DNA of 64,000 bases. Source: Minisyncoccota bacterium. Lineage in GTDB: Bacteria > Patescibacteriota > Minisyncoccia > Phycocordibacterales > UBA9973. Positions within the stretch are counted from its first letter, which is position 1, and the number at the start of each line of letters is the position of its first letter. Where the stretch lies: NCBI GenBank assembly GCA_041662205.1, contig JBAZSZ010000002.1, forward strand, positions 103,266 to 167,265, given 5' to 3'. Below are positions 3,128 through 52,895 of this stretch, piece after piece. A program made the position numbers and the translations under genes. The notes under the pieces are model-generated. The model made no database searches and had not been told where the DNA came from. It was given only the letters and a program-made list of their open reading frames with translations.

Positions 3128-4126
3128 ATGAGACTGTTTTTTATTTTTTTATTTCTTATTTTCTCTTTACTTTTTTCTTCACAGACAGCTTTTGCAGTTT
3201 CTACAACCTCAGCTTCCTCTGATTGCAGTATTACTCTTAAATTAAAAGTAGGTTCAAAGGGTATCGAAGTAGAATGTCTTCAAAGAAAAATAGGGATTGT
3301 GGCTGATGGAAGCTTTGGACCTTTGACTAAAGCTAAAATTGTAGTTTTTCAATCAAATAATGGTTTAAAGATTGACGGAATAGTCGGTCCGCTCACACGG
3401 ACGGCTCTAAATGGTATAAAAGTAGGTAATATTTACCCAGAAGGTTGTATCTCAAATGTAGGATATAGTCCAACGACTGGCAAAAAATGTGATGGTACTG
3501 TAAAAAGTGTTGTAAATAAAGGCTTTAATCCTACTTCTATTCTTACCCCTACTCTTACTCCAAAACTTACTTCCAATAATGTAAATATGGATCAATTTAT
3601 TAAAACAGTGGTAGAAGTAAGTAGAAAATCTGGTTCCAGTGAAGCAAATCTTAAAATCATAGCGGATACTCTCAGGGAAACAATTCTAAATAGTGATGTT
3701 GATTATAATAAAAAATTTGAAGAATTGTTGACCAATGAAAGTAAATTGAGCACTAATTTAAAAACTAATATTTTTGCTTCTGTGTTTGATAAAGTTCTTA
3801 CAAAGACTTTTTCCTTTTTAGGGATTAAGCCTTCTATGGCTTTTGCTGCAACTGGTATACCGTTTGGTGGAGCTTTACTCTTTCCTTTTTTTTGTGAATA
3901 TAATGCAAGCTGGATGATAACTGTTTCACCTCTTCCCCCAACTTTTGTAACCCTTCTCTCTTATTATCCGGGAACTCAAGGATTTGCGAGTTATAATATA
4001 CCTTTTACTCGTTGGTTGCTCGGTGAATATGTAACACCTGGCGTTTGTTTAATACCAGGTGACCCTGTTATTGTTATTCCCACTACAGGTACTATTACTC
4101 CAAAGGTAGGTTCTTCTCCTATTTAG
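3128..4126 (+). CDS. Secreted protein with two putative peptidoglycan-binding (PG_binding_1-like) repeats
   Basis: Signal peptide MRLFFIFLFLIFSLLFSSQTAFA, followed by two repeats of the form GSKGIEVECLQRKIGIVADGSFGPLTKAKIVVFQSNNGLKIDGIVGPLTRTAL. Confidence 0.6.
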   Translation: MRLFFIFLFLIFSLLFSSQTAFAVSTTSASSDCSITLKLKVGSKGIEVECLQRKIGIVADGSFGPLTKAKIVVFQSNNGLKIDGIVGPLTRTALNGIKVGNIYPEGCISNVGYSPTTGKKCDGTVKSVVNKGFNPTSILTPTLTPKLTSNNVNMDQFIKTVVEVSRKSGSSEANLKIIADTLRETILNSDVDYNKKFEELLTNESKLSTNLKTNIFASVFDKVLTKTFSFLGIKPSMAFAATGIPFGGALLFPFFCEYNASWMITVSPLPPTFVTLLSYYPGTQGFASYNIPFTRWLLGEYVTPGVCLIPGDPVIVIPTTGTITPKVGSSPI

Positions 4127-4961
4127 AAGCAAGAGAAATTAGTATTATCCAATCATTGAGCGATAAATCTTCTGCTCTTTTGTTTTCCAGAGATGCCAAA
4201 TCCTTGTTTTGGCAGACATTCTTTAAATTACCAGAGAGTTTTTTTCTTTTATGGGCGAAGCCTGCTTTTACTATTTCCCAAAATTTTTCTTCGTTTATTT
4301 TGTTTTTTATAAAAGTTTTCCTAGAAATATTTTTTATAGAGATAATAGCTGAATCAACTTTTGGTGCGGGAGAAAAATATCTAGCGGGTACCTTCATTAT
4401 TAATTTTGGATCTCCGTAAGCTTTGACTGAAATGGAAAGGATGCTCTCTTTTTGGTCACGAGCGATGATTCTTTTGGCTACTTCATGCTGGACCATCAGA
4501 ACCATAAGTTCTGGTTGATGCAAACCACCTAAAAATTTTTTTAGAATTGCGCCAGTGATATTGTAAGGAATGTTGGCGATTATCTTATAGCGAAGAGATC
4601 TTAAATTTTTAGAATGGTCTGGCCGGGATAGGGACCCGGAGAACCGAGGACTTGATAAAAATTTGAAAATCTCTTCGCTGATATTAAATTCTAAAATATC
4701 CTCATTTATTAAAATTAATTCCCCCCCAGCAATTTCTTTTTCAAACCTTTCTTTTAAAAATTCAAAAAGTTCTCGGTCTTTTTCTACTGCTATTACAGTT
4801 TCAGATTTTTCTAAAAGTTTTTTTGTGAGAGCTCCTTTCCCCGGCCCTATTTCTAAAATTACATCTCCCTTTTTTATTTCACCCGCTTCAATAATTTTTT
4901 TTAAAGCCAGTTCAGACTTTAAAAAATTTTGCCCTAGTGATTTTTTTGCTTTGTGTTGCAT
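4119..4961 (-). CDS. ksgA: 16S rRNA (adenine1518/1519-N6)-dimethyltransferase KsgA/RsmA, carrying an in-frame palindromic element insertion
   Basis: Motifs LGQNFL and EIGPGKGALT (SAM-binding) plus NIPYNIT. The inserted segment SSPRFSGSLSRPDHS is encoded by repeat copy A. Confidence 0.85.
   Translation of the reverse strand: MQHKAKKSLGQNFLKSELALKKIIEAGEIKKGDVILEIGPGKGALTKKLLEKSETVIAVEKDRELFEFLKERFEKEIAGGELILINEDILEFNISEEIFKFLSSPRFSGSLSRPDHSKNLRSLRYKIIANIPYNITGAILKKFLGGLHQPELMVLMVQHEVAKRIIARDQKESILSISVKAYGDPKLIMKVPARYFSPAPKVDSAIISIKNISRKTFIKNKINEEKFWEIVKAGFAHKRKKLSGNLKNVCQNKDLASLENKRAEDLSLNDWIILISLASK
4606..4660 (+). repeat. GC-rich palindromic element, copy A (core ~4614-4652) inside ksgA
   Basis: agaATGGTCTGGCCGGGATAGGGACCCGGAGAACCGAGGACttgataaaa. 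The central CCGGG-ata-ggga-CCCGG hairpin is flanked by the inverted repeats GGTCTGG/CCGAGGACC and by outer ttttnGA/TnAnAAAA arms. Confidence 0.8.
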
Positions 4962-4965
4962 ATAT

Positions 4966-7047
4966 TTATAAGTAAATTGTTTTTATTCCACTAGCCTCCC
5001 CTTCTTTTTCTAATAAATCTGCTGGAATATCAGAAATAAATTCTGATGGAGCATTGATGTTGCGTGATCCAAAAATAGTGCGGAAATTTGCAAAGGATAA
5101 AAATAATTTTCTTCGGGCGCGGGTGAGCGCTACATAGAAAAGCCTTCTTTCTTCTTCACTATCTTCTCCAGACTGTCTCTCTCCTTGTCTTTGGTGCGGG
5201 AAAAGTCCGTCTTCAAGTCCAGTAATAAAAACGTATTCAAATTCAAGGCCTTTTGAGGCATGTACTGTCATTAATTTTATGGCATTTATTGTTTCTTTTT
5301 TCTCCTGATTTATCATTAAAGAATCCTGATCTGAGGCAAGGGAGGCATCTTCTAGAAGTTTTTCTACCCCTGCTCCATTTGTTAAATTGTCATATTTAAG
5401 AGCAAGGGTGGCGAGTTCTTTAATGTTTTCTAGTCTTTCCATATCTTCTTCAGTACCATTTTGTAATTCTTGTTCTATTCCAGATTTTTTGATTACAAAT
5501 TTTATTAATTCACTTGCTTTCAAGTTCGCTATTTTTTCTTTTATTTCTTCTAGTGTTTCGTAAAATTTGCTGATTTTTAACTGCATTTTTATTGGTAAGG
5601 TTTCTTTTTGGTTGGCAAAAATTTTCATCAAAGTTACTTTGCCGATGCCTCGTGCCGGGAAATTTATTATTCTTTTTATGTCAGATAGGCTGTCAGGATT
5701 TAAAGCTGCGCGCAAATATGCGAGAGTGTCTTTAATTTCTTTTCTTTCAAAAAATTTAACCCCTAAAACTTGGTAAGGGATATTATATCGAAGCATCGCT
5801 TCTTCGAGTGCTCGTGATTGGAAATTTGCGCGATATAAAACTGCGACTTCGCTGGCGATGCTTTTGCTCAGGTTCTCGGTCCCCCGGGTCCCTATCCCGG
5901 CCAGACCATTCTCAAAAGCATCACCAGCCCCGTCTATAATTTCTAAAATTTTTGTCGCGACAAATTCGGCTTCATCAGTTTCATCCAGAGCTTCATAGAG
6001 ACTTATCTTTTCACCTTCCACATTTTTTGTAAATAAATTTTTATCTGGCCGGTATTTATTTTTTTTGATTACTTCATTTGCCGCTTCTAAAATATTTTGA
6101 GTAGATCTATAATTTTGTTCTAATAAAATTATTTTGGCATTTGGGTAATCTTTTTCAAAACTTAAAATGTTTTTCAAATTTGCTCCGCGCCAAGAGTAAA
6201 TATTTTGATCGGCATCACCAACTACACAAATATTTTTATTATTTTCAGAAAGTAGCTTAGACATCAAGTATTGCACTTCATTGGTGTCTTGATATTCATC
6301 CACATGGATATATTCCCATTTTTCTTGATAAATTTTTCTGATTTCTGCATTTTCTTTTAATAATTTTGTCGCTTTAAGGAGCAGATCATCAAAGTCTAAA
6401 GAATTCTCTTTCATTTTTTGCTTCTCATATAAATTCCAAACCTGCGCTACTATTTTTCCGAGAGGACTTGAGCCCCCCTCTTCCCTCTCCGCATAATCTG
6501 CTAAATGTACAAACTTTCCTTTTTCTCGCGAGATTATATTTTTTATTTTTTTTGGATCGTATTGTTTTGGATCTATGCCGAGTTCTTTTAAGATATTTTT
6601 AATAAGGGTAGTCGCATCTCCTTCATCTAAAATAGTGAAATATCTTGTAAGTCCTAATAATCTAGCATTTTCTTTTATTATATAAACTCCTAGAGAGTGA
6701 AAAGTGGATACGAAAGGCGCTTCACTGGGAATACTTTTTTGGATGGTCTGGCCGGGATAGGGACCCGGAGAACCGAGGACCTCCGAAAAAGCATTCCCAG
6801 TGAAGCTGTTTTTTATTGCAACATCAATTCTTTCACGCATTTCCTTGGCAGCTTTATTGGTGAATGTCACTGCCAGAATTTTATCAGGAGACACTCCATT
6901 TTTTATTAAATTTACAATTCGGTGCGTAATGGTTTTTGTTTTTCCAGCTCCAGCTCCAGCAATAATCAAAAGTGGTCCCTTCATATGAAGCGCCGCCTCT
7001 TTTTGTTCAGGATTTAGGCCTTTAAGATGTTTTTCGTCTGTATCCAC
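4966..7047 (-). CDS. uvrD: UvrD/PcrA-family ATP-dependent DNA helicase carrying two in-frame palindromic element insertions
   Basis: Walker A GAGAGKTKT, DEYQDTN, and the VLYRANFQSRALEEA helicase motifs. Two extra loop segments, SEVLGSPGPYPGQTIQ and LAGIGTRGTENLS, are encoded by repeat copies C and B. Confidence 0.85.
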   Translation of the reverse strand: MDTDEKHLKGLNPEQKEAALHMKGPLLIIAGAGAGKTKTITHRIVNLIKNGVSPDKILAVTFTNKAAKEMRERIDVAIKNSFTGNAFSEVLGSPGPYPGQTIQKSIPSEAPFVSTFHSLGVYIIKENARLLGLTRYFTILDEGDATTLIKNILKELGIDPKQYDPKKIKNIISREKGKFVHLADYAEREEGGSSPLGKIVAQVWNLYEKQKMKENSLDFDDLLLKATKLLKENAEIRKIYQEKWEYIHVDEYQDTNEVQYLMSKLLSENNKNICVVGDADQNIYSWRGANLKNILSFEKDYPNAKIILLEQNYRSTQNILEAANEVIKKNKYRPDKNLFTKNVEGEKISLYEALDETDEAEFVATKILEIIDGAGDAFENGLAGIGTRGTENLSKSIASEVAVLYRANFQSRALEEAMLRYNIPYQVLGVKFFERKEIKDTLAYLRAALNPDSLSDIKRIINFPARGIGKVTLMKIFANQKETLPIKMQLKISKFYETLEEIKEKIANLKASELIKFVIKKSGIEQELQNGTEEDMERLENIKELATLALKYDNLTNGAGVEKLLEDASLASDQDSLMINQEKKETINAIKLMTVHASKGLEFEYVFITGLEDGLFPHQRQGERQSGEDSEEERRLFYVALTRARRKLFLSFANFRTIFGSRNINAPSEFISDIPADLLEKEGEASGIKTIYL
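5862..5919 (-). repeat. Palindromic element copy B (reverse orientation) inside uvrD
   Basis: ggttctcggtcccccgggtccctatcccggccagaccat, the reverse complement of the family core with variant termini. Confidence 0.8.
6737..6792 (+). repeat. Palindromic element copy C inside uvrD
   Basis: ggATGGTCTGGCCGGGATAGGGACCCGGAGAACCGAGGACCtccgaaaaag. The 39-nt core is identical to copy A. Confidence 0.8.
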
Positions 7048-12418: not shown

Positions 12419-12490
12419 GCACTCGTAGTGAAATGGATATCACAATAGTCTTCGGAACTATTATTGAGGGTTCGAATCCCCCCGAGTGCA
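12419..12490 (+). tRNA. tRNA-Arg (anticodon UCG)
   Basis: Acceptor GCACUCG/CGAGUGC, D-stem GUGA/UCAC, anticodon stem AUAGU/ACUAU with loop CUUCGGA, T-loop UUCGAAU. A TATAAT-like -10 lies about 30 nt upstream. Confidence 0.7.
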
Positions 12491-14105
12491 CAAAACAAAA
12501 GTGGAACAGGATGTTAAAAATTTAATATCAAAAACACCCAAAGAAGTTTCACATGTAACTAATACGCTCGAAAAAGATGGTTTTGAGGCATATCTAGTTG
12601 GCGGGTGCGTTAGAGATCTTTTGATGTCTAAGGAGCCAAATGACTGGGATATCACAACTAATGCTAAACCAGAGCAAATTATAAGTCTTTTTGAAAAGAC
12701 TGTTTATGAGAATGGCTTTGGTACAGTAGCTGTGGTTGTTCCGCGTGAAACACATCAAGAGGATGTTTCACATGGAACAAACCCTATTCCCTTGTCAGAA
12801 GAGAAAAATATGATTATAGAAGTTACTCCTTATAGAATTGAAGCAAAATATAGCGATTTTAGACATCCAGATGAGGTGAAATTTAGTGATAAGCTGGAGG
12901 ACGATCTTAAAAGACGTGACTTTACGGTTAATGCCATGGCCTTAAACAGTAAAGGACATCTGGTTGATTTTTTTGATGGTATAAAGGACATTAACGAAAA
13001 GACAATAAAGGCAGTAGGGAATCCAGATGATCGTTTTGCTGAAGATGCTCTCAGGATGTTGCGCGCTGTACGTCTTTCCTGCCAGCTTAATTTTTCTGTG
13101 GCTTATGAAACGATGCAAAGTATTTTGAAAAATTCAGAGTTGATAAAAAAAATTTCTGAAGAAAGAATTCGTGATGAGTTTGTAAAAATAATTATGTCGG
13201 AAAATTCCGCGAATGGAATCGTGATGTTACAAAAATTTAATTTGTTAAAAAATATAATTCCTGAACTAGAAGAGGGAATAGGCTGTGAACAATCCGGTGA
13301 GCATATTTACGACGTTTGGAATCATTTACTTCATGCATTAGAACATGCGACAAACAAGAATTGGTCTTTGGAAATAAGGCTCGCAGCGCTTTTCCATGAT
13401 ATTGGGAAGCCCCGAAGTAGGCGTATTGCGGAGCGAATTGATAATTTATCAGGTCCTCGGTCTTTCGGGTCCCTACCCCGGCCAGACCATGACAAATCAT
13501 CAATTCGCTCCGCAAAGAAAAAATTTACTTTTTACGGTCATGAAGTTGTCAGCACGCGGATGGCAAAAAAAATAATGGAGAGATTAAAATTTCCTAAAAA
13601 AGAAATTGAGTTAGTAGAAAAACTTGTTCGCAATCATATGTTTTTTTCTGACACAGAATTAATCACGCTGTCAGCCGTGCGAAGAATTATTGCAAAAGTT
13701 GGAAAAGAAAATATTTGGTTATTGATGAATGTCCGTGAGTGCGACAGGGTAGGGATGAAGAAAAAAGAAACCCCATATCGCCTTCGGAAGTATTTTGCCA
13801 TGATTGAGGAAGCCCTGAGAGATCCTATTTCTGTCGGACAGTTGAAAATCAACGGTGAATTTATGATAAAAGAGCTTGGAATCACTCCCGGACCACGCAT
13901 GGGGTGGATTTTACATGCATTACTCGAAGAAGTGCTAGATGCTCCGGAGAAAAACACGGTAGAACATCTGTCGGAGTTGGTAAAATCTTTAAATATGTTG
14001 GGGGATACAGAACTAAAAACTCTTGGTCTACGTGGAAAAGAAAAAAAAGAAGAATTAGAAGAAGAAGAGGTTGTGAAGCTTCACAAAAAGCATGGAGTGA
14101 AATAA
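12486..14105 (+). CDS. cca: CCA-adding tRNA nucleotidyltransferase with an HD domain, carrying an in-frame palindromic element insertion
   Basis: GGCVRDLL, RRDFTVNA, and the HD motif LFHDIGKP...FYGHE with about 26 extra residues (..NLSGPRSFGSLPRPDHD..) between GKP and FYGHE, encoded by repeat copy D. The start is a GTG at 12486 (overlaps the tRNA-Arg 3' end by 5 nt) or at 12501; there is no early in-frame ATG. Confidence 0.8.
   Translation: MHKTKVEQDVKNLISKTPKEVSHVTNTLEKDGFEAYLVGGCVRDLLMSKEPNDWDITTNAKPEQIISLFEKTVYENGFGTVAVVVPRETHQEDVSHGTNPIPLSEEKNMIIEVTPYRIEAKYSDFRHPDEVKFSDKLEDDLKRRDFTVNAMALNSKGHLVDFFDGIKDINEKTIKAVGNPDDRFAEDALRMLRAVRLSCQLNFSVAYETMQSILKNSELIKKISEERIRDEFVKIIMSENSANGIVMLQKFNLLKNIIPELEEGIGCEQSGEHIYDVWNHLLHALEHATNKNWSLEIRLAALFHDIGKPRSRRIAERIDNLSGPRSFGSLPRPDHDKSSIRSAKKKFTFYGHEVVSTRMAKKIMERLKFPKKEIELVEKLVRNHMFFSDTELITLSAVRRIIAKVGKENIWLLMNVRECDRVGMKKKETPYRLRKYFAMIEEALRDPISVGQLKINGEFMIKELGITPGPRMGWILHALLEEVLDAPEKNTVEHLSELVKSLNMLGDTELKTLGLRGKEKKEELEEEEVVKLHKKHGVK
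13443..13499 (-). repeat. Palindromic element copy D (reverse orientation) inside cca
   Basis: aggtcctcggtctttcgggtccctaccccggccagaccatgac. The variant central hairpin ttcggg/ccccgg contains one G-U-type mismatch. Confidence 0.75.
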
Positions 14106-20494: not shown

Positions 20495-20676
20495 TTTCTA
20501 TCTTTTTGCTTTTTGGTTATAAAATGCTAGGATAAATAATAGTTCATTAAAATTATTTATTAGTTAATCAGGTTCGCGTTTAGACACAAAGTAGTGTTTC
20601 CACTTATTATTTAAGTTGTGAAACAACACTGTAGTCTGGATACGAACCCTGCCCGCCTCTGGTGGGTGAAAAAAAG

Positions 20677-23807: not shown

Positions 23808-24887
23808 TTAATGTTTTATTTTTTTGATTTTTTCCCAAGGAAAATTTTTCTTGCCAAAATGGCCATATATAGCAGTCTGCTCATATATGGGTTTTTGGAG
23901 ACTCAGAGTTTTGATTATAGCGAGTGGTTTAAAGTCAAAATTTTGGCGGACAATTTTTGATAAATCTTCCCCTTTTTCATTTATTGCTTCTATCATCAGA
24001 GGTTCAGCCATACCTATAGCGTAAGCGACAGATACCAATATTTCTTTGCCGTATCCTGATGCTACTAAACTTTTGGCAACAAAACGCGCCATATAAGCAC
24101 CGGAGCGATCCACCTTTGTAGCGTCTTTTCCAGAAAAACATCCGCCTCCGTGGGGAATGAGCGCGCCATAAGTGTCTACTATTATTTTTCTTCCAGTTAA
24201 CCCTGTATCTGCTGCAAAACCACCGGAAGTAAATTTGTCTGTCGGATTTACTAAAATTTTTACTGTTTTTCGCTCTTCGGGAGATAGAAGGGGATTGATT
24301 ATTTTTTTTGTAATTTCTTTTTTTATTTCTTCCAAGGTAACATCTGGTGAATGTTGAGTACTCACTAATACAGTATGCAGTTTTCCATTAGTATAAGTTA
24401 CTTGTGTTTTGCCATCTGGTTGGAGCCATTTTATTTTTTTATTTTTATCAGTACTTTTTCTTGTCTCTTCTAAGCGTCTGGCAAGTTTGTGTGCTAACAC
24501 TACTCCTTTTGGTAAGAATTCCGGTGTTTCATTTGTGGCATATCCATACATAATGCCTTGATCTCCTGCTCCACCAATATCTACTCCTTTCGCTATATCA
24601 GGAGATTGAGTGACTATATGCGCAGAGATATTAAGTTTGTCTGTATAGCCAATTTTTTGATATACATTTTTTGCGATTTTGACATAATCTACCTTTCCTT
24701 TGGAAGTTACTTCTCCGCCGATGACAAGCTTGCCATGGCCACCAAAAATTTCTACGGCTACACGGCTTTTTGGATCTATTTTTAAATACGCATCTAAAAT
24801 AGCGTCTGATATTTGATCACAGATTTTATCTGGATGACCGGAAGTTACACTCTCGACGGTGTAATTGTTGCTGTGTTTGTAAAACAT
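23808..24887 (-). CDS. metK: S-adenosylmethionine synthetase
   Basis: ESVTSGHPDKICDQISDAILD and the GGGAFSGKD-type motif GGGCFSGKDATKVDRSGAY. Confidence 0.9.
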   Translation of the reverse strand: MFYKHSNNYTVESVTSGHPDKICDQISDAILDAYLKIDPKSRVAVEIFGGHGKLVIGGEVTSKGKVDYVKIAKNVYQKIGYTDKLNISAHIVTQSPDIAKGVDIGGAGDQGIMYGYATNETPEFLPKGVVLAHKLARRLEETRKSTDKNKKIKWLQPDGKTQVTYTNGKLHTVLVSTQHSPDVTLEEIKKEITKKIINPLLSPEERKTVKILVNPTDKFTSGGFAADTGLTGRKIIVDTYGALIPHGGGCFSGKDATKVDRSGAYMARFVAKSLVASGYGKEILVSVAYAIGMAEPLMIEAINEKGEDLSKIVRQNFDFKPLAIIKTLSLQKPIYEQTAIYGHFGKKNFPWEKIKKIKH

Positions 24888-24902
24888 GATAGGAGTATAA
24901 CA

Positions 24903-24955
24903 TTTCCCCCACCCCAGGGATAGGGGAAATCCCCTATCCCTGGGGTGGGGGAAAC
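24903..24955. repeat. Perfect 53-bp palindrome (25-bp arms, 3-nt spacer) between divergent metK and the dksA-like gene
   Basis: TTTCCCCCACCCCAGGGATAGGGGA-aat-TCCCCTATCCCTGGGGTGGGGGAAA. GC-rich in an AT-rich genome. Its GGGATAGGG centre resembles the core of the in-frame element family. Confidence 0.85.
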
Positions 24956-24968
24956 TTGCTATGAAAAT

Positions 24969-25346
24969 ATGAAATGTTATGATTGTGGCATGTTAGACAA
25001 GAAAAAAATTAAAGAGAAATTAGAAAAAGAAAGAGATGTTTTGCTTGAGCAGATGAAGGACTGGGGCAAATTAAATGGAGAGACAGGAGAGTGGGAAGCG
25101 ATTCCGGAAGTATTGGAATTTCCGGAAACTGATGAAAATGATAAAGCCGACCGGTTCGAGAATTTTGAAGCTAGAAGTTCTATGATCAGAACCCTAGAGC
25201 CAAGATTAAATATTATTTTAAAATCATTGAAAGGAATAAATAGAGAGTCTTTTGGAAAGTGTGTAGTTTGTGGAAAATTTATTGAAATGGCGCGCTTGGA
25301 AGCAAATCCTGCTGCTCAGACATGTAAGAAACATTTAGAAAGTTAA
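24969..25346 (+). CDS. DksA/TraR-family C4 zinc-finger protein
   Basis: C-terminal CVVCGKFIEMARLEANPAAQTCKKH preceded by a coiled-coil region. The ORF-track start (GTG at 24945) lies inside the palindrome; an ATG at 24969 is more plausible. Confidence 0.65.
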   Translation: MKCYDCGMLDKKKIKEKLEKERDVLLEQMKDWGKLNGETGEWEAIPEVLEFPETDENDKADRFENFEARSSMIRTLEPRLNIILKSLKGINRESFGKCVVCGKFIEMARLEANPAAQTCKKHLES

Positions 25347-25349
25347 TTT

Positions 25350-26966
25350 ATGAGTTTTGCCAAAGTTTATTCAGCGCAAGTTAATTTACTCAAGGGTTCT
25401 ATCGTGACTATTGAAGTAGATCTCTCAAAAGGGCTCCACTCTTTTAGCTTGGTTGGTTTGCCGGACAAAGCGGTGGATGAATCCAAAGATAGAGTAAGCG
25501 GAGCCATAAAAAATTCTGGCTTTAAATCTCCCAAAGCAAAAAATCAAAAGATAATAGTTTCGCTTTCACCGGCTGATTTGAAAAAGGAGGGCCCTTTTTT
25601 TGATTTAGGAATTGCTTTGTCTTATATGCTAGCGGCGGGTGACGTGAAATTTGATTCAGAGAAAAAGATTTTTTTAGGAGAGCTGGGGCTCGATGGAACT
25701 TTGCGGAAAATCCGTGGGGCCTTACCACTTGCGCAAGAAGCTAAAAGACTTGGTTTTGAAGAAATATATTTACCAAAAGAAAATGCAGTCGAGGCGGCGT
25801 TAGTGGAAGGCATAAAAATTTTTGGAGCAAATAGTTTGCAGGAAGTGGTGAGGCATCTAAGCCCCAATGAGGCCAGCAAAATTTTTTCGGGTCCTCGGTC
25901 TGAAGCCAGACCAGCTCAAAAATCTTCTAGCCTCATTGAGGCTGGAGGATTAATTAATATTCAGCCGCAAACAAAAATAAATTATAAAAAAGAAATATCA
26001 CGGATTGATTTTTCAGATATTCGTGGGCAAGAGGGAGCCAAGCGAGGTTTGGAAATTGCGGCAGCTGGCGGACACAATATCGCCATGTATGGCCCACCGG
26101 GCACAGGTAAGACGATGCTTGCTCGGGCATTTTCTCAACTACTACCAGATTTAGATCTTGATGAGGTTTTAGAAATTACAGGCATTCACTCAGTAGCAGG
26201 AAATACAAATGGAGAGTTAGTTTGTTTTCCTCCATTTCGTTCCCCGCATCATACTTCGTCCTATGTTTCTATTATCGGTGGAGGGACATATCCAAAGCCC
26301 GGAGAAGTGACGCTCGCACATCGCGGAGTTTTATTTTTAGATGAATTTCCAGAATTTGAAAAAAGAGTGATCGAATCTCTGCGCCAGCCACTCGAAGACA
26401 ACATTGTTTCAATTTCGCGCGCCAAAGGAAATGCTTGTTTTCCTTCAAATTTTATTTTAGTCGCGGCGATGAATCCTTGTCCTTGTGGGAACGCGACTTC
26501 GAAACAAAAAGCATGCATTTGCAAACCGTCCGACTTAGATAGATATAAAAGAAAATTGTCTGGACCGATTGTGGATCGTATCGATCTCTGGGTTTCTGTC
26601 GGTAACGTTGATTATAAAAAATTAGGAGGCGATGGGGATGGCGAGAAAAGTGAAAAGATAAAAGAAAGAATAATCAAAGCGCGAGAAAACCAAAAAAATA
26701 GATTTAAAAAATTTGAGAAAGATATTAAGAAAAAAATCACAACTAATAGTGAGATGAATGTAAAAGATCTAGGTATGATGGTGCCACTCGGTGGCAAAGT
26801 GAGAGACTTGCTCGATGATAGTGCAGAACGTTTGAGCTTGTCTGCTCGCGCCTATCATCGGATAATTAAAATAGCATGCACGATAGCAGACTTGGAAAAT
26901 TCTCCTGAGGTAGAAGAGCATCATATTTTAGAAGCGATACAATATCGACCGAAAGTTAATAACTAG
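25350..26966 (+). CDS. comM: YifB/ComM-family Mg-chelatase-like AAA+ ATPase, carrying an internally deleted copy of the palindromic element in its linker
   Basis: N-terminal Lon-like domain, Walker A GPPGTGKT, Walker B VLFLDEF, and a C-terminal Mg-chelatase region. The linker SGPRSEARPAQ is encoded by repeat copy E. Confidence 0.8.
   Translation: MSFAKVYSAQVNLLKGSIVTIEVDLSKGLHSFSLVGLPDKAVDESKDRVSGAIKNSGFKSPKAKNQKIIVSLSPADLKKEGPFFDLGIALSYMLAAGDVKFDSEKKIFLGELGLDGTLRKIRGALPLAQEAKRLGFEEIYLPKENAVEAALVEGIKIFGANSLQEVVRHLSPNEASKIFSGPRSEARPAQKSSSLIEAGGLINIQPQTKINYKKEISRIDFSDIRGQEGAKRGLEIAAAGGHNIAMYGPPGTGKTMLARAFSQLLPDLDLDEVLEITGIHSVAGNTNGELVCFPPFRSPHHTSSYVSIIGGGTYPKPGEVTLAHRGVLFLDEFPEFEKRVIESLRQPLEDNIVSISRAKGNACFPSNFILVAAMNPCPCGNATSKQKACICKPSDLDRYKRKLSGPIVDRIDLWVSVGNVDYKKLGGDGDGEKSEKIKERIIKARENQKNRFKKFEKDIKKKITTNSEMNVKDLGMMVPLGGKVRDLLDDSAERLSLSARAYHRIIKIACTIADLENSPEVEEHHILEAIQYRPKVNN
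25884..25913 (-). repeat. Internally deleted palindromic element copy E inside comM
   Basis: ttttcgGGTCCTCGGTCTgaagCCAGACCAgct. Both termini are retained and the central palindrome is replaced by gaag. Confidence 0.6.
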
Positions 26967-28178: not shown

Positions 28179-28313
28179 TATTTTAAGTTGATATTTATAA
28201 TATTTCGACCAATTAACCCTTATTTTTGATACCTCTACATTATATATCAAGGGTTTTTTAAGGCAAGTCTTTTGAAAAATTAAAAAATCTTTATAAATAC
28301 CAATCTTTTTAGG

Positions 28314-28385
28314 GTACAGATTTTTCAATAAAAGATTAGACTTAAAAAATCCTGAAGTTTGCTCGCCGTCGCTCGCAAAACCCCC
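28314..28385 (+). repeat. Family T2, degenerate copy 3 (downstream of rny, upstream of hup)
   Basis: GGTACAGATTTTTcaataaaagattagacttAAAAAATCCTGAAGTTTGCTCGCCGTCGCTCGCAAAACCCCC. Confidence 0.55.
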
Positions 28386-33333: not shown

Positions 33334-33445
33334 ACTAAAATAGGAAAATATCAAAATTTATAAAGCAATCTATCTGGTGTTGCTACACCAGCGAACTGCT
33401 CGGCCCGTCGGCCTGCGCAAGGCTTTCTAAATTTTTTATTTTCCT
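33334..33445. repeat. Family T1, copy 2 (downstream of pyrF), flanked by a perfect 18-bp inverted repeat
   Basis: aactaaaataggaaaata...ataaagcAATCTATCTGGTGTTGCTACACCAGCGAACTGCTCGGCCCGTCGGCCTGCGCAAGgctttctaaa...tattttcctattttagtt. Compensatory substitutions relative to copy 1 in both internal hairpins. Confidence 0.75.
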
Positions 33446-33631
33446 ATTTTAGTTTTCCACTTTTTCCACTTTTATCTAGGCTTGCTTCTGTGTGTAGAAA
33501 TGTTACTATCATTTTTAATGTATCAACAGAGATTAAAAGAGAAAAAGTCTGGGGAAAAGTTTGCCACTTCTATCTTTTTAAGCTCCATTATCAATATTTT
33601 ATTTTAAAACCCCTTTTGGGGTTATTTTTTT

Positions 33632-44824: not shown

Positions 44825-46597
44825 ATGCAAATTAACGAAGAACAATTAAAGAAATTTATTTTAGATGAAGGGTTGGTATCTGAAACAGATCTCAAGGATG
44901 CATTTAAAAAAGCTGAAATTAAAAAACAAAAAATTGGGGACGTTTTATTTTCAGATGGGAAAATATCTGAAACTGATTTAAAGCGAATAGAGGCTTATGT
45001 TTTAGGAATACCATTCGTTAGTTTGAATGATAAAAAAATAGATTTTTCTGTTCTTTCTTTTGTGCCTGAACCAATTGCGCGCAATTATAATATTGTCGCT
45101 TATAAAAAAAGTGAAAACAGCTTAGAGGTGGCGATGCTTGATGTTGATGACCTGCCGGTGATTGATTTTATTAAAAAACGTTCCGGCTTAAAAATTTTAC
45201 CTAGGTTAACAGATACAGCTTCTATCAGATCTGTCTTGGTTCAGTATCGACAAAGTTTAGAATCTGAATTTCGAGATATTATTCAAAAAGAAAATGCTAC
45301 TTTAAATAATTCTTTAGGAGAAGACAGTGAAGGTTCTGCAGAAAAAACTGGTGAAAAGTCTGAATTGGAATTAAAACAAATGGCAGAGGATCTGCCAGTG
45401 GTAAAAATAGTAGATTCTTTAATTTTTCATGCAATTTTACAAAATGCGTCCGACATTCATATTGAGCCTGGAGAACATGAGCTCACTGTGCGTTACCGAA
45501 TAGATGGAATCTTGCATGACGCCATGGTCCTTGAGAAAAATGCTGGTTCAGGGATAACTGCGCGTATCAAAGTATTAGCCAATTTAAAATTGGATGAAAA
45601 AAGATTGCCCCAAGACGGCAGATTTAAAATAGAACAAAATGGAGAAAAAATTTCTTTTCGTGTTTCTACTCTACCTACTTTTTTTGGAGAGAAGACAGTG
45701 ATCAGAATTTTAAAAGAAAACACCCATGGTTTTTCTTTAGAAGCGCTTGGTTTTCATGGTGAAGGATTAGAGCGAATACATAACTCATTGAAACAAAAAA
45801 CTGGGATGGTGCTCGCTACTGGTCCGACCGGAAGTGGAAAGACGACTACGCTTTATACTTTGCTTGATATTTTAAATAGACCAGAAGTTAATATTTCAAC
45901 AGTAGAAGATCCTGTCGAATATCAAATGCCTAGAGTCAATCAAACACAGGTTAAACCAGAGATTGGTTTAACTTTTGCCAACGGGCTTCGTTCATTATTG
46001 CGTCAAGATCCGGACATTGTAATGGTGGGAGAAATTCGTGATGGAGAAACAGCTGGATTGGCTATCAATGCTTCGCTTACAGGTCACTTAGTTCTTTCTA
46101 CTATTCATACCAACTCAGCTTCTGGTGCAATTCCAAGACTTATAGATATGGGAGTGGAGCCTTTTTTGATAACCGCCACTGTGAAAACAATTCTAGCTCA
46201 AAGACTAGTGCGTCGACTTACAGCTAATAAAGAAAAATATTTCCTGTCTGATGTAGAGATAAAAAATCTTGCAAAGGTTGTCGATTTAGATAGAGTGTTA
46301 GATTTTTTAAAAATTGAAAAAATTGTGAGTGAAAAAGATGATTGGGAAAAAATTCCTTTTTATAAAGCGATAAAAAATGCTGAATTTGAAGATGGATATT
46401 CGGGTCGGGTTGGGATGCATGAAGTATTAAAAGTTACACCCACTATCAAAGAAATGATTATTAAGGGAAGTTCTCAGGATGATATAGAGGCGCAAGCAAA
46501 AAAAGAAGGAATGATGACTATGATTGAGGATGGAGTTTTCCAAGCAGTATTGGGTTTAACTACCCTTGAAGAAGTGTTCCGAGTTGTTTCAGAATAG
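44825..46597 (+). CDS. pilB: Type IV pilus assembly ATPase PilB (GspE family)
   Basis: N-terminal GSPII-type domain, Walker A GPTGSGKTTTLY, Asp box, Walker B IVMVGEIRD, His box. Confidence 0.9.
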   Translation: MQINEEQLKKFILDEGLVSETDLKDAFKKAEIKKQKIGDVLFSDGKISETDLKRIEAYVLGIPFVSLNDKKIDFSVLSFVPEPIARNYNIVAYKKSENSLEVAMLDVDDLPVIDFIKKRSGLKILPRLTDTASIRSVLVQYRQSLESEFRDIIQKENATLNNSLGEDSEGSAEKTGEKSELELKQMAEDLPVVKIVDSLIFHAILQNASDIHIEPGEHELTVRYRIDGILHDAMVLEKNAGSGITARIKVLANLKLDEKRLPQDGRFKIEQNGEKISFRVSTLPTFFGEKTVIRILKENTHGFSLEALGFHGEGLERIHNSLKQKTGMVLATGPTGSGKTTTLYTLLDILNRPEVNISTVEDPVEYQMPRVNQTQVKPEIGLTFANGLRSLLRQDPDIVMVGEIRDGETAGLAINASLTGHLVLSTIHTNSASGAIPRLIDMGVEPFLITATVKTILAQRLVRRLTANKEKYFLSDVEIKNLAKVVDLDRVLDFLKIEKIVSEKDDWEKIPFYKAIKNAEFEDGYSGRVGMHEVLKVTPTIKEMIIKGSSQDDIEAQAKKEGMMTMIEDGVFQAVLGLTTLEEVFRVVSE

Positions 46598-46605
46598 TTA
46601 GTTGC

Positions 46606-46683
46606 GCTTCTTCCAATTTTTCTTCGGCTCATCCTTCTCGGAGTACCGAGCGGGACCCTACCGAAAGAAAAATTGGAAGAAGC
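46606..46683. repeat. Compound GC-containing palindrome between pilB and pilC
   Basis: cttcttccaatttttcttCGG...CTCGGagtaCCGAG...CCGaagaaaaattggaagaag. An 18-bp outer inverted repeat encloses an inner palindrome. The right arm overlaps the possible TTG start of pilC. Confidence 0.6.
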
Positions 46684-51421: not shown

Positions 51422-52419
51422 AAAATATACAAGGGAAAACGGTGCTGGTGCGGGTGGATTTTAATGTGCCTATTAAAAATGGGAAAGTGGAAGATGATTT
51501 TCGCATAAAAAGAGCTTTGCCAACAATTAATTTTTTACTTAAAAAAGGTGCGAAATTAATTTTAATTACTCATCTTGGTAAAGACGGAACAGCAAGTCTG
51601 AAACCAGTGATAAAACATTTTTTTGCAATTTCAAAAATACCTGAAAACAAAATAACTTTTTTTGACAATATCAGAAAATTTCCTGGTGAAATGAAAAATG
51701 ATAAAAATTTTGCCAAAAAACTCTCAACCATGGGGGATATTTATGTGAATGACGCTTTTTCGGTTTCACATAGAAAACATGCTTCATTAGTAACGTTACC
51801 AAAATACTTGCAAAGTTTTGCCGGATTGGAATTTGAAAAAGAAATAGAAAATTTGTCTCACGCTATTTTAAAACCTAAACATCCATTTTTATTTATTTTA
51901 GGCGGGGCTAAATTTTCCACTAAAATGCCTCTCATAAAAAAATACTTAAAATTAGCAGACTACGTTTTTGTCGGTGGAGCTTTAGCCCATGATTTTTTAA
52001 AAGTGAAAGGATGTGAAATCGGTGAGTCTTTGGTCAGTAATGATAATTATGGGATTGAAGAATTATTGAAAAATAAAAAATTGATTATACCTACTGATTT
52101 TATAATGAAAGACGGGGCTATTATAGATATAGGAGAAGAGGCAGTGAAAGATTTAGCTTCTCTAATAAAGAAGTCGAAACTTATACTCTGGAATGGTCCG
52201 CTTGGCAAATATGAAGACGGCGGAGCGAAAGCCACAAAAAAAGCATTGAGGCTGGTTGCAGCTTCTAGAGCTGAAAGTATTATTGGCGGAGGAGATACTG
52301 CGGATTTAATAGATAAAATGAATATAGAAAATAAATTTTCTTTTGTGTCGACCGGAGGTGGCGCCATGCTAGATTTCTTGGCAAATGGAACCCTACCAGG
52401 AATCAAAGCGCTTCGATAA
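51400..52419 (+). CDS. pgk: Phosphoglycerate kinase (compact, 339 aa)
   Basis: VLVRVDFNVP and C-terminal STGGGAMLDFL. Overlaps tpiA by 22 nt. Confidence 0.8.
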   Translation: MRSIKSIKNIQGKTVLVRVDFNVPIKNGKVEDDFRIKRALPTINFLLKKGAKLILITHLGKDGTASLKPVIKHFFAISKIPENKITFFDNIRKFPGEMKNDKNFAKKLSTMGDIYVNDAFSVSHRKHASLVTLPKYLQSFAGLEFEKEIENLSHAILKPKHPFLFILGGAKFSTKMPLIKKYLKLADYVFVGGALAHDFLKVKGCEIGESLVSNDNYGIEELLKNKKLIIPTDFIMKDGAIIDIGEEAVKDLASLIKKSKLILWNGPLGKYEDGGAKATKKALRLVAASRAESIIGGGDTADLIDKMNIENKFSFVSTGGGAMLDFLANGTLPGIKALR

Positions 52420-52795
52420 TTTTTTTGGCAGCTTCTACTGATTCATTATCTTTATATGTTTTTATTGGAAACATAGGTAGAGCATCTTTTAAATATCTTG
52501 GAATTAGGTGAACGTGGAAATGCGGGACGTCTTTGCCTACGACTGATAACTGTACATAATCGCACCCAATTCCTTTTTTAACGGCTAGTATTAATTTTTT
52601 TGCTAATGTAAAAATTTCTGAAATGATTCCATCATCTGCGTCTTGTATCCAGACAATATGCTTTTTAGGAATTATTAAAAGGTGTCCATCGGAAACTGGC
52701 TGGATGTCTAAAAACACCAAAAAATCTTGGTTTTCATGGATTTTTGTGCAAGGGATTTCTCCTTTGACTATTTTACAAAAAATGCAGTTTTCCAT
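52403..52795 (-). CDS. HIT-family (histidine triad) hydrolase
   Basis: CIFCKI zinc-binding region and HFHVHLIP histidine triad. Confidence 0.75.
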   Translation of the reverse strand: MENCIFCKIVKGEIPCTKIHENQDFLVFLDIQPVSDGHLLIIPKKHIVWIQDADDGIISEIFTLAKKLILAVKKGIGCDYVQLSVVGKDVPHFHVHLIPRYLKDALPMFPIKTYKDNESVEAAKKIIEAL

Positions 52796-52812
52796 AGAAA
52801 GTTTTATAAAAT

Positions 52813-52875
52813 AAAGTTTTGGAATGGTCTGGCTGGGATAGGGACCCAGAGAACCGAGGACCTGAGAAAACTTTG
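52813..52875 (+). repeat. Palindromic element copy F, intergenic (HIT gene / recJ), with compensatory stem changes
   Basis: aaagttttggaATGGTCTGGCTGGGATAGGGACCCAGAGAACCGAGGACCtgagaaaacttt. The stem CTGGG/CCCAG replaces CCGGG/CCCGG, a double compensatory change. The outer arms aaagtttt/aaaacttt extend the palindrome to about 63 bp. Confidence 0.8.
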
Positions 52876-52895
52876 ATTTTATAAAACTTTCTATA

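Follow-up and report, generated by a model that had tools for sequence, protein, structure and literature searches.

A repeated hairpin-forming element in frame within the cca gene of a Candidatus Paceibacterota genome, at a site occupied by many unrelated hairpins

Introduction

The cca gene considered here encodes a CCA-adding enzyme of a Candidatus Paceibacterota genome (Patescibacteria, or candidate phyla radiation, CPR). It is carried on a 64,000-nucleotide stretch of contig JBAZSZ010000002.1, hereafter referred to as the window, which is AT-rich with a GC content of 35%. Within the open reading frame (ORF), the peptide NLSGPRSFGSLPRPDHD, encoded at 13443-13493, separates the sequences LFHDIGKP and FYGHE of the HD domain. 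A first-pass annotation attributed this peptide to one copy (copy D) of a repeated element inserted between two metal-ligand segments, and proposed that either the function of the enzyme may be affected or the loop may be unusually permissive. The questions raised by the locus are what kind of DNA was placed there, how it has persisted, and at what cost to the enzyme. As described below, copy D is probably a non-autonomous palindromic repeat of the Nomurabacteria/Paceibacterota, resembling both MITEs (miniature inverted-repeat transposable elements) and the Rickettsia palindromic elements (RPEs), and tolerated in a permissive loop.

Results

Copy D is a unit of 90 nt, or 30 codons, in which a conserved GC-rich core is flanked by two inverted arms (Table 1). 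The arms, taken as 26 nt each (13426-13451 and 13490-13515), are 92% complementary, and the entire unit forms a single long hairpin with a folding energy of -47.8 kcal/mol, compared to -23.5 ± 3.2 kcal/mol for shuffled sequences (z = -7.5). The interval 13443-13499 assigned to the element in the first-pass annotation thus corresponds to its center rather than to its full extent. That account mentions neither the copy-specific arms, nor the reuse of the site by many families, nor the fact that the core is conserved independently of frame. The placement between the HD and GHE metal-ligand motifs is verified by the codon positions.

A blastn search of the window with the 42-nt core returned five full copies at 86-90% identity, where none would be expected by chance. 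A profile constructed from 68 cores of other genomes recovered the same five copies (E <= 5e-16) together with a truncated sixth at 25879-25922 (nhmmer E 0.0023). Every copy in the window combines the core with a near-perfect stem of 16-27 bp whose sequence is specific to that copy. Blastn, profile search, and folding accordingly agree with the earlier proposal of an in-frame copy of a repeat that forms a hairpin. Among the five full copies, D has diverged furthest in its core, with an nhmmer score of 54.4 bits versus 60.7-69.0 for the others. Its apical 9-mer, CCCTACCCC, is found only in this copy, the other four full copies having CCCTATCCC. The T/C variant reported previously is therefore real, and C is the minority state, being observed in six of 83 distinct instances with T in the remaining 77.

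In a species-representative genome collection, the core pattern GGGTCCCTAYCCCRGCCAGACC was located in 68 stretches from ~50 species-level genomes, almost all of them metagenome-assembled genomes (MAGs) of the Nomurabacteria/Paceibacterota, at roughly 5-10 strict copies per genome. All but ~3 of the 68 stretches display the same anatomy, namely the core, an A/T-rich inner stem, and a locus-specific outer stem. The element is palindromic, has no coding capacity of its own, is shorter than 200 bp, and occurs in multiple copies, as is characteristic of MITEs. Candidate occurrences outside of the Patescibacteria, on two GC-rich contigs labelled WS1 and Chromatiaceae (L006 and L035), consist of a 22-nt pattern lacking the left half of the core and the hairpin, and are probably chance matches. 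No match to the element was found in viral contigs, phages, or plasmids, and an origin from any of these is thus unsupported. Rfam models applied to the window at their gathering scores identified tRNAs only and no intron or ribozyme family; when run in E-value mode for the element they gave only generic hairpin matches to microRNA precursors, far below threshold.

Fifty-four percent of the distinct instances (41 of 76) lie within ORFs of at least 150 amino acid residues. The core consensus is free of stop codons in five of its six frames, all five of which are used by instances in ORFs. The remaining frame, which contains a TAG in GGATAGGG, is used by none. The recurrent genic sites are in cca, rsmA/ksgA, and uvrD, the last with two, and ~8 further genes are hit. 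The genic instances are in the sense orientation in 36 of 41 cases, a count that is inflated by orthologous copies.

The cca site itself is unusually variable. Among the best 120 protein matches (73-100% identity, one being identical to the query), the segment extending from HDIGKP to TFYGHE ranges from 23 to 90 residues. All 80 of the orthologous cca loci obtained from metagenomes are open and in frame through the site. This count was employed in place of hairpin length modulo 3, which is uninformative with regard to frame selection because the greedily determined stem boundaries do not coincide with the insertion boundaries. Approximately 15 of the 80 loci are "empty" (23-27 residues), and about 80% contain a hairpin-forming insert that begins just past RR(LAE) and stops before KKK. 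The inserts belong to at least eight unrelated core families, as judged by inspection, given that single-linkage clustering merges families through their A/T-rich stems and tandem composites. The copy D family is present at the site in both orientations (antisense in L005, L056, and L127), tandem or nested inserts are observed in L070, L092, L118, L121, and L135, and in L118 and L121 the left arm of another family has been retained. Several of the "empty" alleles appear to be deletion remnants of a hairpin, to judge from the TAGCTGAAGACTCGGCTA present in L085 and L108 and the GAAAATTTATC of the left arm kept by L080.

In the solved homolog (3WFO/3WFP), 10 residues are found where the window protein has 38, which indicates that the insertion is the derived state. 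The first-pass annotation had pointed to orthologs from unrelated bacteria as the place where the same segment should be sought. Close relatives do carry it, by descent, and the more distant orthologs carry other elements or none. Because of this pattern, and because the same nucleotides are present in other genes and in other frames, the segment is an element rather than a native domain.

Nine orthologous cca copies of the same family could be aligned without gaps, and their arms are homologous but diverged. In this alignment 90.8% of the cells are paired, and 12 of the 35 pairs have changed on both sides. None of 500 shuffles reached the observed values, and slid controls were ~40% paired. 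The mean pairwise identities, with ungapped flanks, are 0.887 for the core, 0.645 for the outer stems, 0.608 for third codon positions, and 0.865 for the flanking protein. The copies have thus descended vertically, and their arms drift at about the neutral rate yet stay complementary, whereas the core is constrained. This neutral comparison is confined to cca, as the 300-nt flanks of uvrD site C and of ksgA contain insertions and deletions (amino acid identities of 0.44-0.55) that render third positions unreliable. The constraint on the core acts on the nucleic acid, since these nucleotides are also conserved where they are read in another frame and where they are non-coding. The apical pair likewise covaries, being C-G in 52, T-A in 27, and mismatched in four of the 83 instances. 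Homogenization of the cores within genomes, as in concerted evolution, is weakly supported (identity of 0.83 within versus 0.79 between genomes, permutation p = 0.09).

Empty and filled sites can be compared in three other places. At uvrD site C, the native loop KNAKGQDxIPF, within a 28-residue segment, is conserved in 10 orthologs, and the filled segments measure 50-53 residues. At the ksgA site, a native loop of the type TSNYNLEARTY (25 residues) contrasts with 46 residues when filled. The hairpin takes the place of seven to ten native codons in both genes, and neither of its arms is native. L067 has an empty intergenic locus (42 nt), which in a dozen other species is filled by hairpins of either orientation whose stems are unrelated. 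Inasmuch as none of these empty sites contains either arm, the whole hairpin, including its arms, is the insert, and a scheme in which one arm was native and the other its inverted target duplication is ruled out. The arms otherwise differ from locus to locus, but share a weak deeper consensus, (TTC)GCAGGAAATGCTTTTT, which suggests that they are fast-diverging terminal repeats. Composite alleles occur at uvrD site C as well: in L070 a hairpin of another family is enclosed by the two retained old arms, and in L026 a new hairpin stands beside the old left arm. Cores encoding closely similar peptides, NFSS(A/L)(H/R)PSR..(E/G)WDP, are observed at uvrD site C in L070 and L128 and at the ksgA site in L062.

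L009, at the ksgA site, and L014, at the intergenic locus, are minimal variants in which GGAAAAAATCC stands in place of the apical hairpin on a retained basal motif, AGGTCCTCGG...CCAGACCAT, and L031, L132, L142, and L147 have a longer, different apex on the same basal motif. As the apex varies while the base stays, the basal motif may be the essential part.

With regard to the enzyme, the head, RNA-binding neck, and body domains of a class II CCA-adding enzyme are all present in the cca product, which matches the Pfam families PolyA_pol (PF01743, E 3.8e-36), PolyA_pol_RNAbd (PF12627), HD (PF01966), and tRNA_NucTran2_2 (PF13735). A match to a CCA-adding enzyme in the PDB (6ibp) has an E value of 3.6e-49, and a Foldseek comparison of the model with CCA-adding enzyme 6qy6 gave E 1.6e-17. 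An AlphaFold2 model, the check suggested in the first-pass annotation, was calculated from a 55-sequence alignment and has a mean predicted local distance difference test score (pLDDT) of 81. In this model the insert, residues 312-342, forms a loop with pLDDT <50 and no secondary structure at the turn after the HD motif, flanked on one side by a helix ending with LFHD and on the other by a short strand, residues 345-347. The rest of the HD domain is modelled with confidence. Residues H273, H280, H304, D305, H352, E353, H384, and D420 are invariant in the 55 orthologs, with and without inserts, as are the nucleotidyltransferase motifs, and the Pfam HD family matches residues 272-391 as a single stretch. 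There is, in short, no sign of the loss of function that had been considered. The alternative, an unusually permissive loop, fits the 23-90-residue segments of the 80 in-frame loci, the disorder in the model, and the shortness of the loop in 3WFO. Given the disordered model, the invariant HD and nucleotidyltransferase motifs, and the universal conservation of the frame, the insert is most likely translated as a tolerated, disordered surface loop, and the enzyme is probably functional.

The head domain of the protein contains a second variable region (12750-12803, residues 89-106), where the codons for RETHQEDVSH form a small inverted repeat (GTGAAACA...TGTTTCAC). The region varies from 12 to 40 residues in orthologs, with one to three (D/N)VS(R/H)ET units that can be encoded by a perfect palindrome, GTTTCACGTGAAAC, and with occasional GC-rich hairpin inserts such as that giving SPQPSPLQGEG. 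Its AlphaFold confidence is <50, and the residues are not present in the PDB homologs.

The start of the gene requires comment. The maximal ORF begins with the GTG at 12486, within the acceptor arm of the upstream tRNA-Arg(TCG) gene, in which the 3' CCA is not encoded. The N-terminus of most orthologs reads MEQ(D/N).KNLI, often from an ATG, and the equivalent position in the window is the in-frame GTG at 12501, nine nt past the end of the tRNA gene at 12491. On the basis of these ortholog N-termini, the true start is probably GTG 12501, and the overlap between tRNA-Arg and cca described previously, which holds for the longest ORF only, is a probable artifact of longest-ORF gene calling. The need for a GTG start, also proposed earlier, stands with either position. 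Note that tRNA-Arg precedes cca in several orthologs as well, where N-terminal extensions of the type MHK(I/S)KVEQ represent read-through of the tRNA end.

Table 1. Locations of the cca features and of the element copies in the window.
Feature	Coordinates	Strand	Description
tRNA-Arg (anticodon TCG)	12419-12491	+	ARAGORN; Rfam tRNA, 63.1 bits; directly 5' of cca
cca	12501-14105 (maximal ORF 12486-14105)	+	Class II tRNA nucleotidyltransferase with C-terminal HD domain; start at 12501 probable
HD motif codons (H304, D305)	13395-13400	+	5' of insert; invariant in 55 orthologs
Copy D	13426-13515	+	In frame in cca
Copy D, left arm	13426-13448	+	Encodes IAERIDNL; locus-specific; inverted repeat; arms of orthologs homologous with compensatory changes
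Copy D, conserved GC-rich core	13449-13490	+	TCAGGTCCTCGG...CCAGACCAT, read in frame SGPRSFGSLPRPDH; blastn, nhmmer, core alignment
Copy D, right arm	13491-13515	+	Encodes DKSSIRSA; complementary to left arm
GHE motif codons (G351, H352, E353)	13536-13544	+	3' of insert; H352 and E353 invariant in 55 orthologs
Copy A	4589-4679	-	Core 4614-4659 (-); in frame in rsmA/ksgA (ORF 4119-4961, minus; Pfam RrnaAD); sense, frame SSPRFSGSLSRPDH
Copy B	5851-5928	+	Core 5868-5909 (+); in frame in uvrD-like helicase gene (ORF 4966-7047, minus; Pfam UvrD); antisense, read as NGLAGIGTRGTENL
Copy C	6719-6806	-	Core 6743-6782 (-); in frame in uvrD-like helicase gene, after motif Ia; sense, frame VLGSPGPYPGQT
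Copy E	52794-52894	-	Core 52824-52865 (-); non-coding; hairpin abuts ATG of HIT-family gene (52403-52795, minus)
Copy F (truncated-apex variant, GGGTCCTCGGTCTGAAGCCAGACCAG)	25860-25943	+	In frame in Mg-chelatase/ComM-like gene (25350-26966; Pfam)

As can be seen from Table 1, the uvrD-like helicase gene has two copies, of which C is sense and B antisense. In JBAZSF01 (L026), the closest relative, the core at uvrD site B is in the opposite orientation and is accompanied by a second hairpin, and the core at site C is replaced by one of another family. The apical helix of copy E is a compensatory CTGGG/CCCAG. The base of its hairpin extends over the initial bases of the HIT-family ATG, leaving no room for a Shine-Dalgarno sequence outside of the stem, and at the orthologous site in L039 and L044 the core is in the opposite orientation.

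Other hairpins are also present in the window. A perfect 25-bp GC-rich palindrome (24877-25000, core 24903-24954; -69.5 kcal/mol) lies between metK, on the minus strand, and a dksA/traR zinc-finger gene, on the plus strand, and both of its arms contain the apical 9-mer CCCTATCCC of the element. This 9-mer may be a protein-binding motif common to the palindrome and the element. A hairpin of another family, with a 19-bp perfect stem and the core CGGCTCATCCTTCTCGGAGTACCGAGCGGGACCCTACCG, is located at 46606-46683 between ORF 44825-46597 and the next ORF, the first start codon of which is at 46673. Further long hairpins at 20561-20650, 28250-28353 (within a 180-residue open frame), and 33341-33450, with energies of -26 to -41 kcal/mol and other or AT-rich centers, may represent additional element families.

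Discussion

The explanation favored here is that copy D belongs to a type of element ~80-90 nt in length, having a conserved GC-rich apex of 42-46 nt and long, near-perfectly pairing arms that differ between loci. Such an element would have inserted, in an ancestor of the species group, into the turn codons of the short β-hairpin located after the HD motif in the CCA-adding enzyme, and would have been inherited vertically since then, its arms drifting while staying complementary. Transcribed and translated together with the gene, it would survive only in frame, and the outcome would be a disordered surface loop of 27-30 residues, with both active sites, nucleotidyltransferase and HD, left intact. 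This and other hairpin families would repeatedly have settled in the cca loop and the equivalent positions in rsmA/ksgA and uvrD, with many replacements, flips, and partial deletions. Mobility would presumably be provided by a factor acting in trans, and flipping may occur through recombination between the inverted arms.

Several observations weigh against this explanation. No transposase for the element was identified, and no autonomous parent insertion sequence (IS), recognizable as separated left and right halves flanking a gene, was found in the 1.45 Mb searched. A comparison of filled and empty alleles at uvrD, ksgA, and one intergenic locus revealed no consistent target-site duplication, with a possible TTC at one locus. 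The core is conserved far above the arms and third positions in orthologous copies that are seemingly old, which would not be predicted from the neutral decay of dead selfish copies and which is indicative either of selection on the nucleic acid or of ongoing core replacement. In addition, unrelated families at exactly the same site are hard to explain by random insertion and selection alone. Finally, the translation of the insert and the activity of the enzyme are deduced from sequence conservation only. The reuse of sites and the conservation of the core, considered together, suggest either a trans-acting factor that recognizes and renews the apex or selection at the level of the host, and each of these possibilities leads to an alternative explanation.

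In the first of these, which is put forward tentatively, the hairpins would constitute an undescribed class of structure-directed elements. A trans-acting factor would read the GC-rich apex, new elements would be installed at or would replace the apices of existing hairpins, and the apex would be under frame-independent purifying selection. Such a process would explain why unrelated core families, in both orientations, recur across species at identical codon positions in cca, rsmA, and uvrD, and why outer stems have been kept while apices were swapped, as in L070 and L026 at uvrD site C and in L118 and L121 at cca. It would likewise explain the mosaic of C-G and U-A variants of the apical helix over loci and genomes, and the intact cores of copies whose arms have diverged to saturation.

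In the second, which is unlikely and partly overlaps with the favored explanation, the hairpin would be mainly a nucleic-acid signal selected by the host rather than selfish DNA. It could serve as an RNA structure for mRNA processing or stability, such as an RNase III site, or as a DNA site for a binding protein, and would be located in gene loops because compact genomes have little intergenic space. The conservation of the core far above neutral regardless of reading frame, its near identity over ~50 species with no strong genome-specific homogenization, and the covariation of both the stem and the apical helix are all in keeping with a signal. So is the enrichment of the 9-mer CCCTAYCCC, of which seven occurrences are observed in the window versus 0.32 expected, two of them in the perfect palindrome of the metK/dksA promoter region. 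The sense bias within genes would also fit, but is inflated as noted above. A host signal is difficult to reconcile, however, with cores in either orientation at the same locus (cca, ksgA, uvrD site B, and the intergenic locus), with unrelated cores or none at that locus in related species, with the low number of strict copies per genome, and with host genes (cca, rsmA, uvrD, the ComM-like gene, and others) that have no common function.

It is very improbable that the segment is removed or skipped during expression, by intron-like excision or by translational bypassing as in T4 gene 60 and the mitochondrial "byp" elements, to yield a protein without the insert. The stability of the hairpin does resemble that of an RNA-processing substrate, and GC-rich hairpins in an AT-rich genome recall the mitochondrial GC clusters and byps. 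Maintenance of an open, stop-free frame through segments of 23-90 residues at all 80 loci, in at least eight families, would nevertheless be needless if the insert were removed, and for this reason removal from the RNA and ribosomal bypass are both unlikely. Moreover, the only frame with a stop codon is never used, and neither a bulge-helix-bulge geometry nor a match to an intron or ribozyme family was found. A native, lineage-specific loop with a chance resemblance to the repeat, or an assembly artifact, can be dismissed with near certainty, for although close relatives have the same peptide at the same place, the same 42 nt recur in rsmA, uvrD, intergenic DNA, and at least eight other genes in five frames, the element is found in independent MAGs and metagenomes of many studies, and about a fifth of the orthologs have no insert at all.

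The closest parallel to the favored explanation is provided by RPE-1 to RPE-8, which are small, non-coding palindromic repeats that form long stem-loops in intergenic regions and in frame within conserved protein genes. As in the present case, the insert is tolerated as an extra peptide, several families coexist, and the hosts are host-dependent bacteria with reduced genomes. In-frame RPEs have been described in 19 protein genes, and the product of a gmk gene with such an element is both translated and active (PMC2229807). The elements described here reside in a different phylum, the Patescibacteria, and are shorter (~80-90 nt versus 105-146 bp; PMC2229807). What is conserved in them is a GC-rich apex and not the ends, the arms being locus-specific and co-evolving. 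Unrelated families, in either orientation, make use of identical sites, and in old orthologous copies the core is conserved above neutral. They work in the manner of RPEs and MITEs but are probably members of neither, the distinction from RPEs being drawn from the host, the size, and the arrangement of conserved and variable parts.

Bacterial MITEs (Correia/NEMIS, ERIC, RUP, and YPAL) are likewise <200 bp in length, with terminal inverted repeats (in the present elements, arms that differ between loci), stable RNA hairpins, multiple copies, and no transposase gene, and some copies are fused in frame to ORFs. No TA ends or consistent target-site duplication were detected for the Patescibacteria elements, and no parent IS with matching ends was found in the 1.45 Mb. 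Their core is GC-rich rather than AT-rich, and conservation is lowest, not highest, in their terminal repeats. Repetitive extragenic palindromic sequences (REPs) and the REPINs formed from them are hairpin repeats with long vertical persistence, associated with RAYT transposases, in which a conserved recognition sequence forms the stem. They are extragenic, whereas more than half of the copies described here (54%) are intragenic and their conserved part is the apex. The GC clusters, repetitive hairpin elements, and byps of yeast and sponge mitochondria are mobile hairpins, rich in GC, of compact and AT-rich genomes, and some lie within protein-coding genes. These elements are organellar, and the byps, which ribosomes skip, do not have to be in frame; here, by contrast, the genic copies are all in frame and free of stop codons.

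Full-text literature searches returned no description of such elements in the Patescibacteria. To the extent of the literature searched, the elements that repeatedly colonize the same loop positions of essential genes apparently constitute a previously undescribed set. The in-frame colonization of essential genes by palindromic repeats has been known almost only from Rickettsia, and the CPR/Patescibacteria would be a second, unrelated lineage with reduced genomes in which it is widespread, with many element families involved. A single unit of 90 nt separates three layers of constraint, namely the protein frame, the pairing of the stem, and the sequence of the apex. As one codon offers dozens of naturally occurring alleles, whether filled, empty, flipped, or replaced, the movement and persistence of the elements can be tested by comparison and by biochemistry. 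The CCA-adding enzyme has a natural insertion-tolerant site in the turn following its HD motif. The insert families explain a large part of the length variation and of the "low-complexity inserts" in Patescibacteria proteins, and are thus of relevance to annotation, alignment, phylogenomics, and structure prediction in these organisms.

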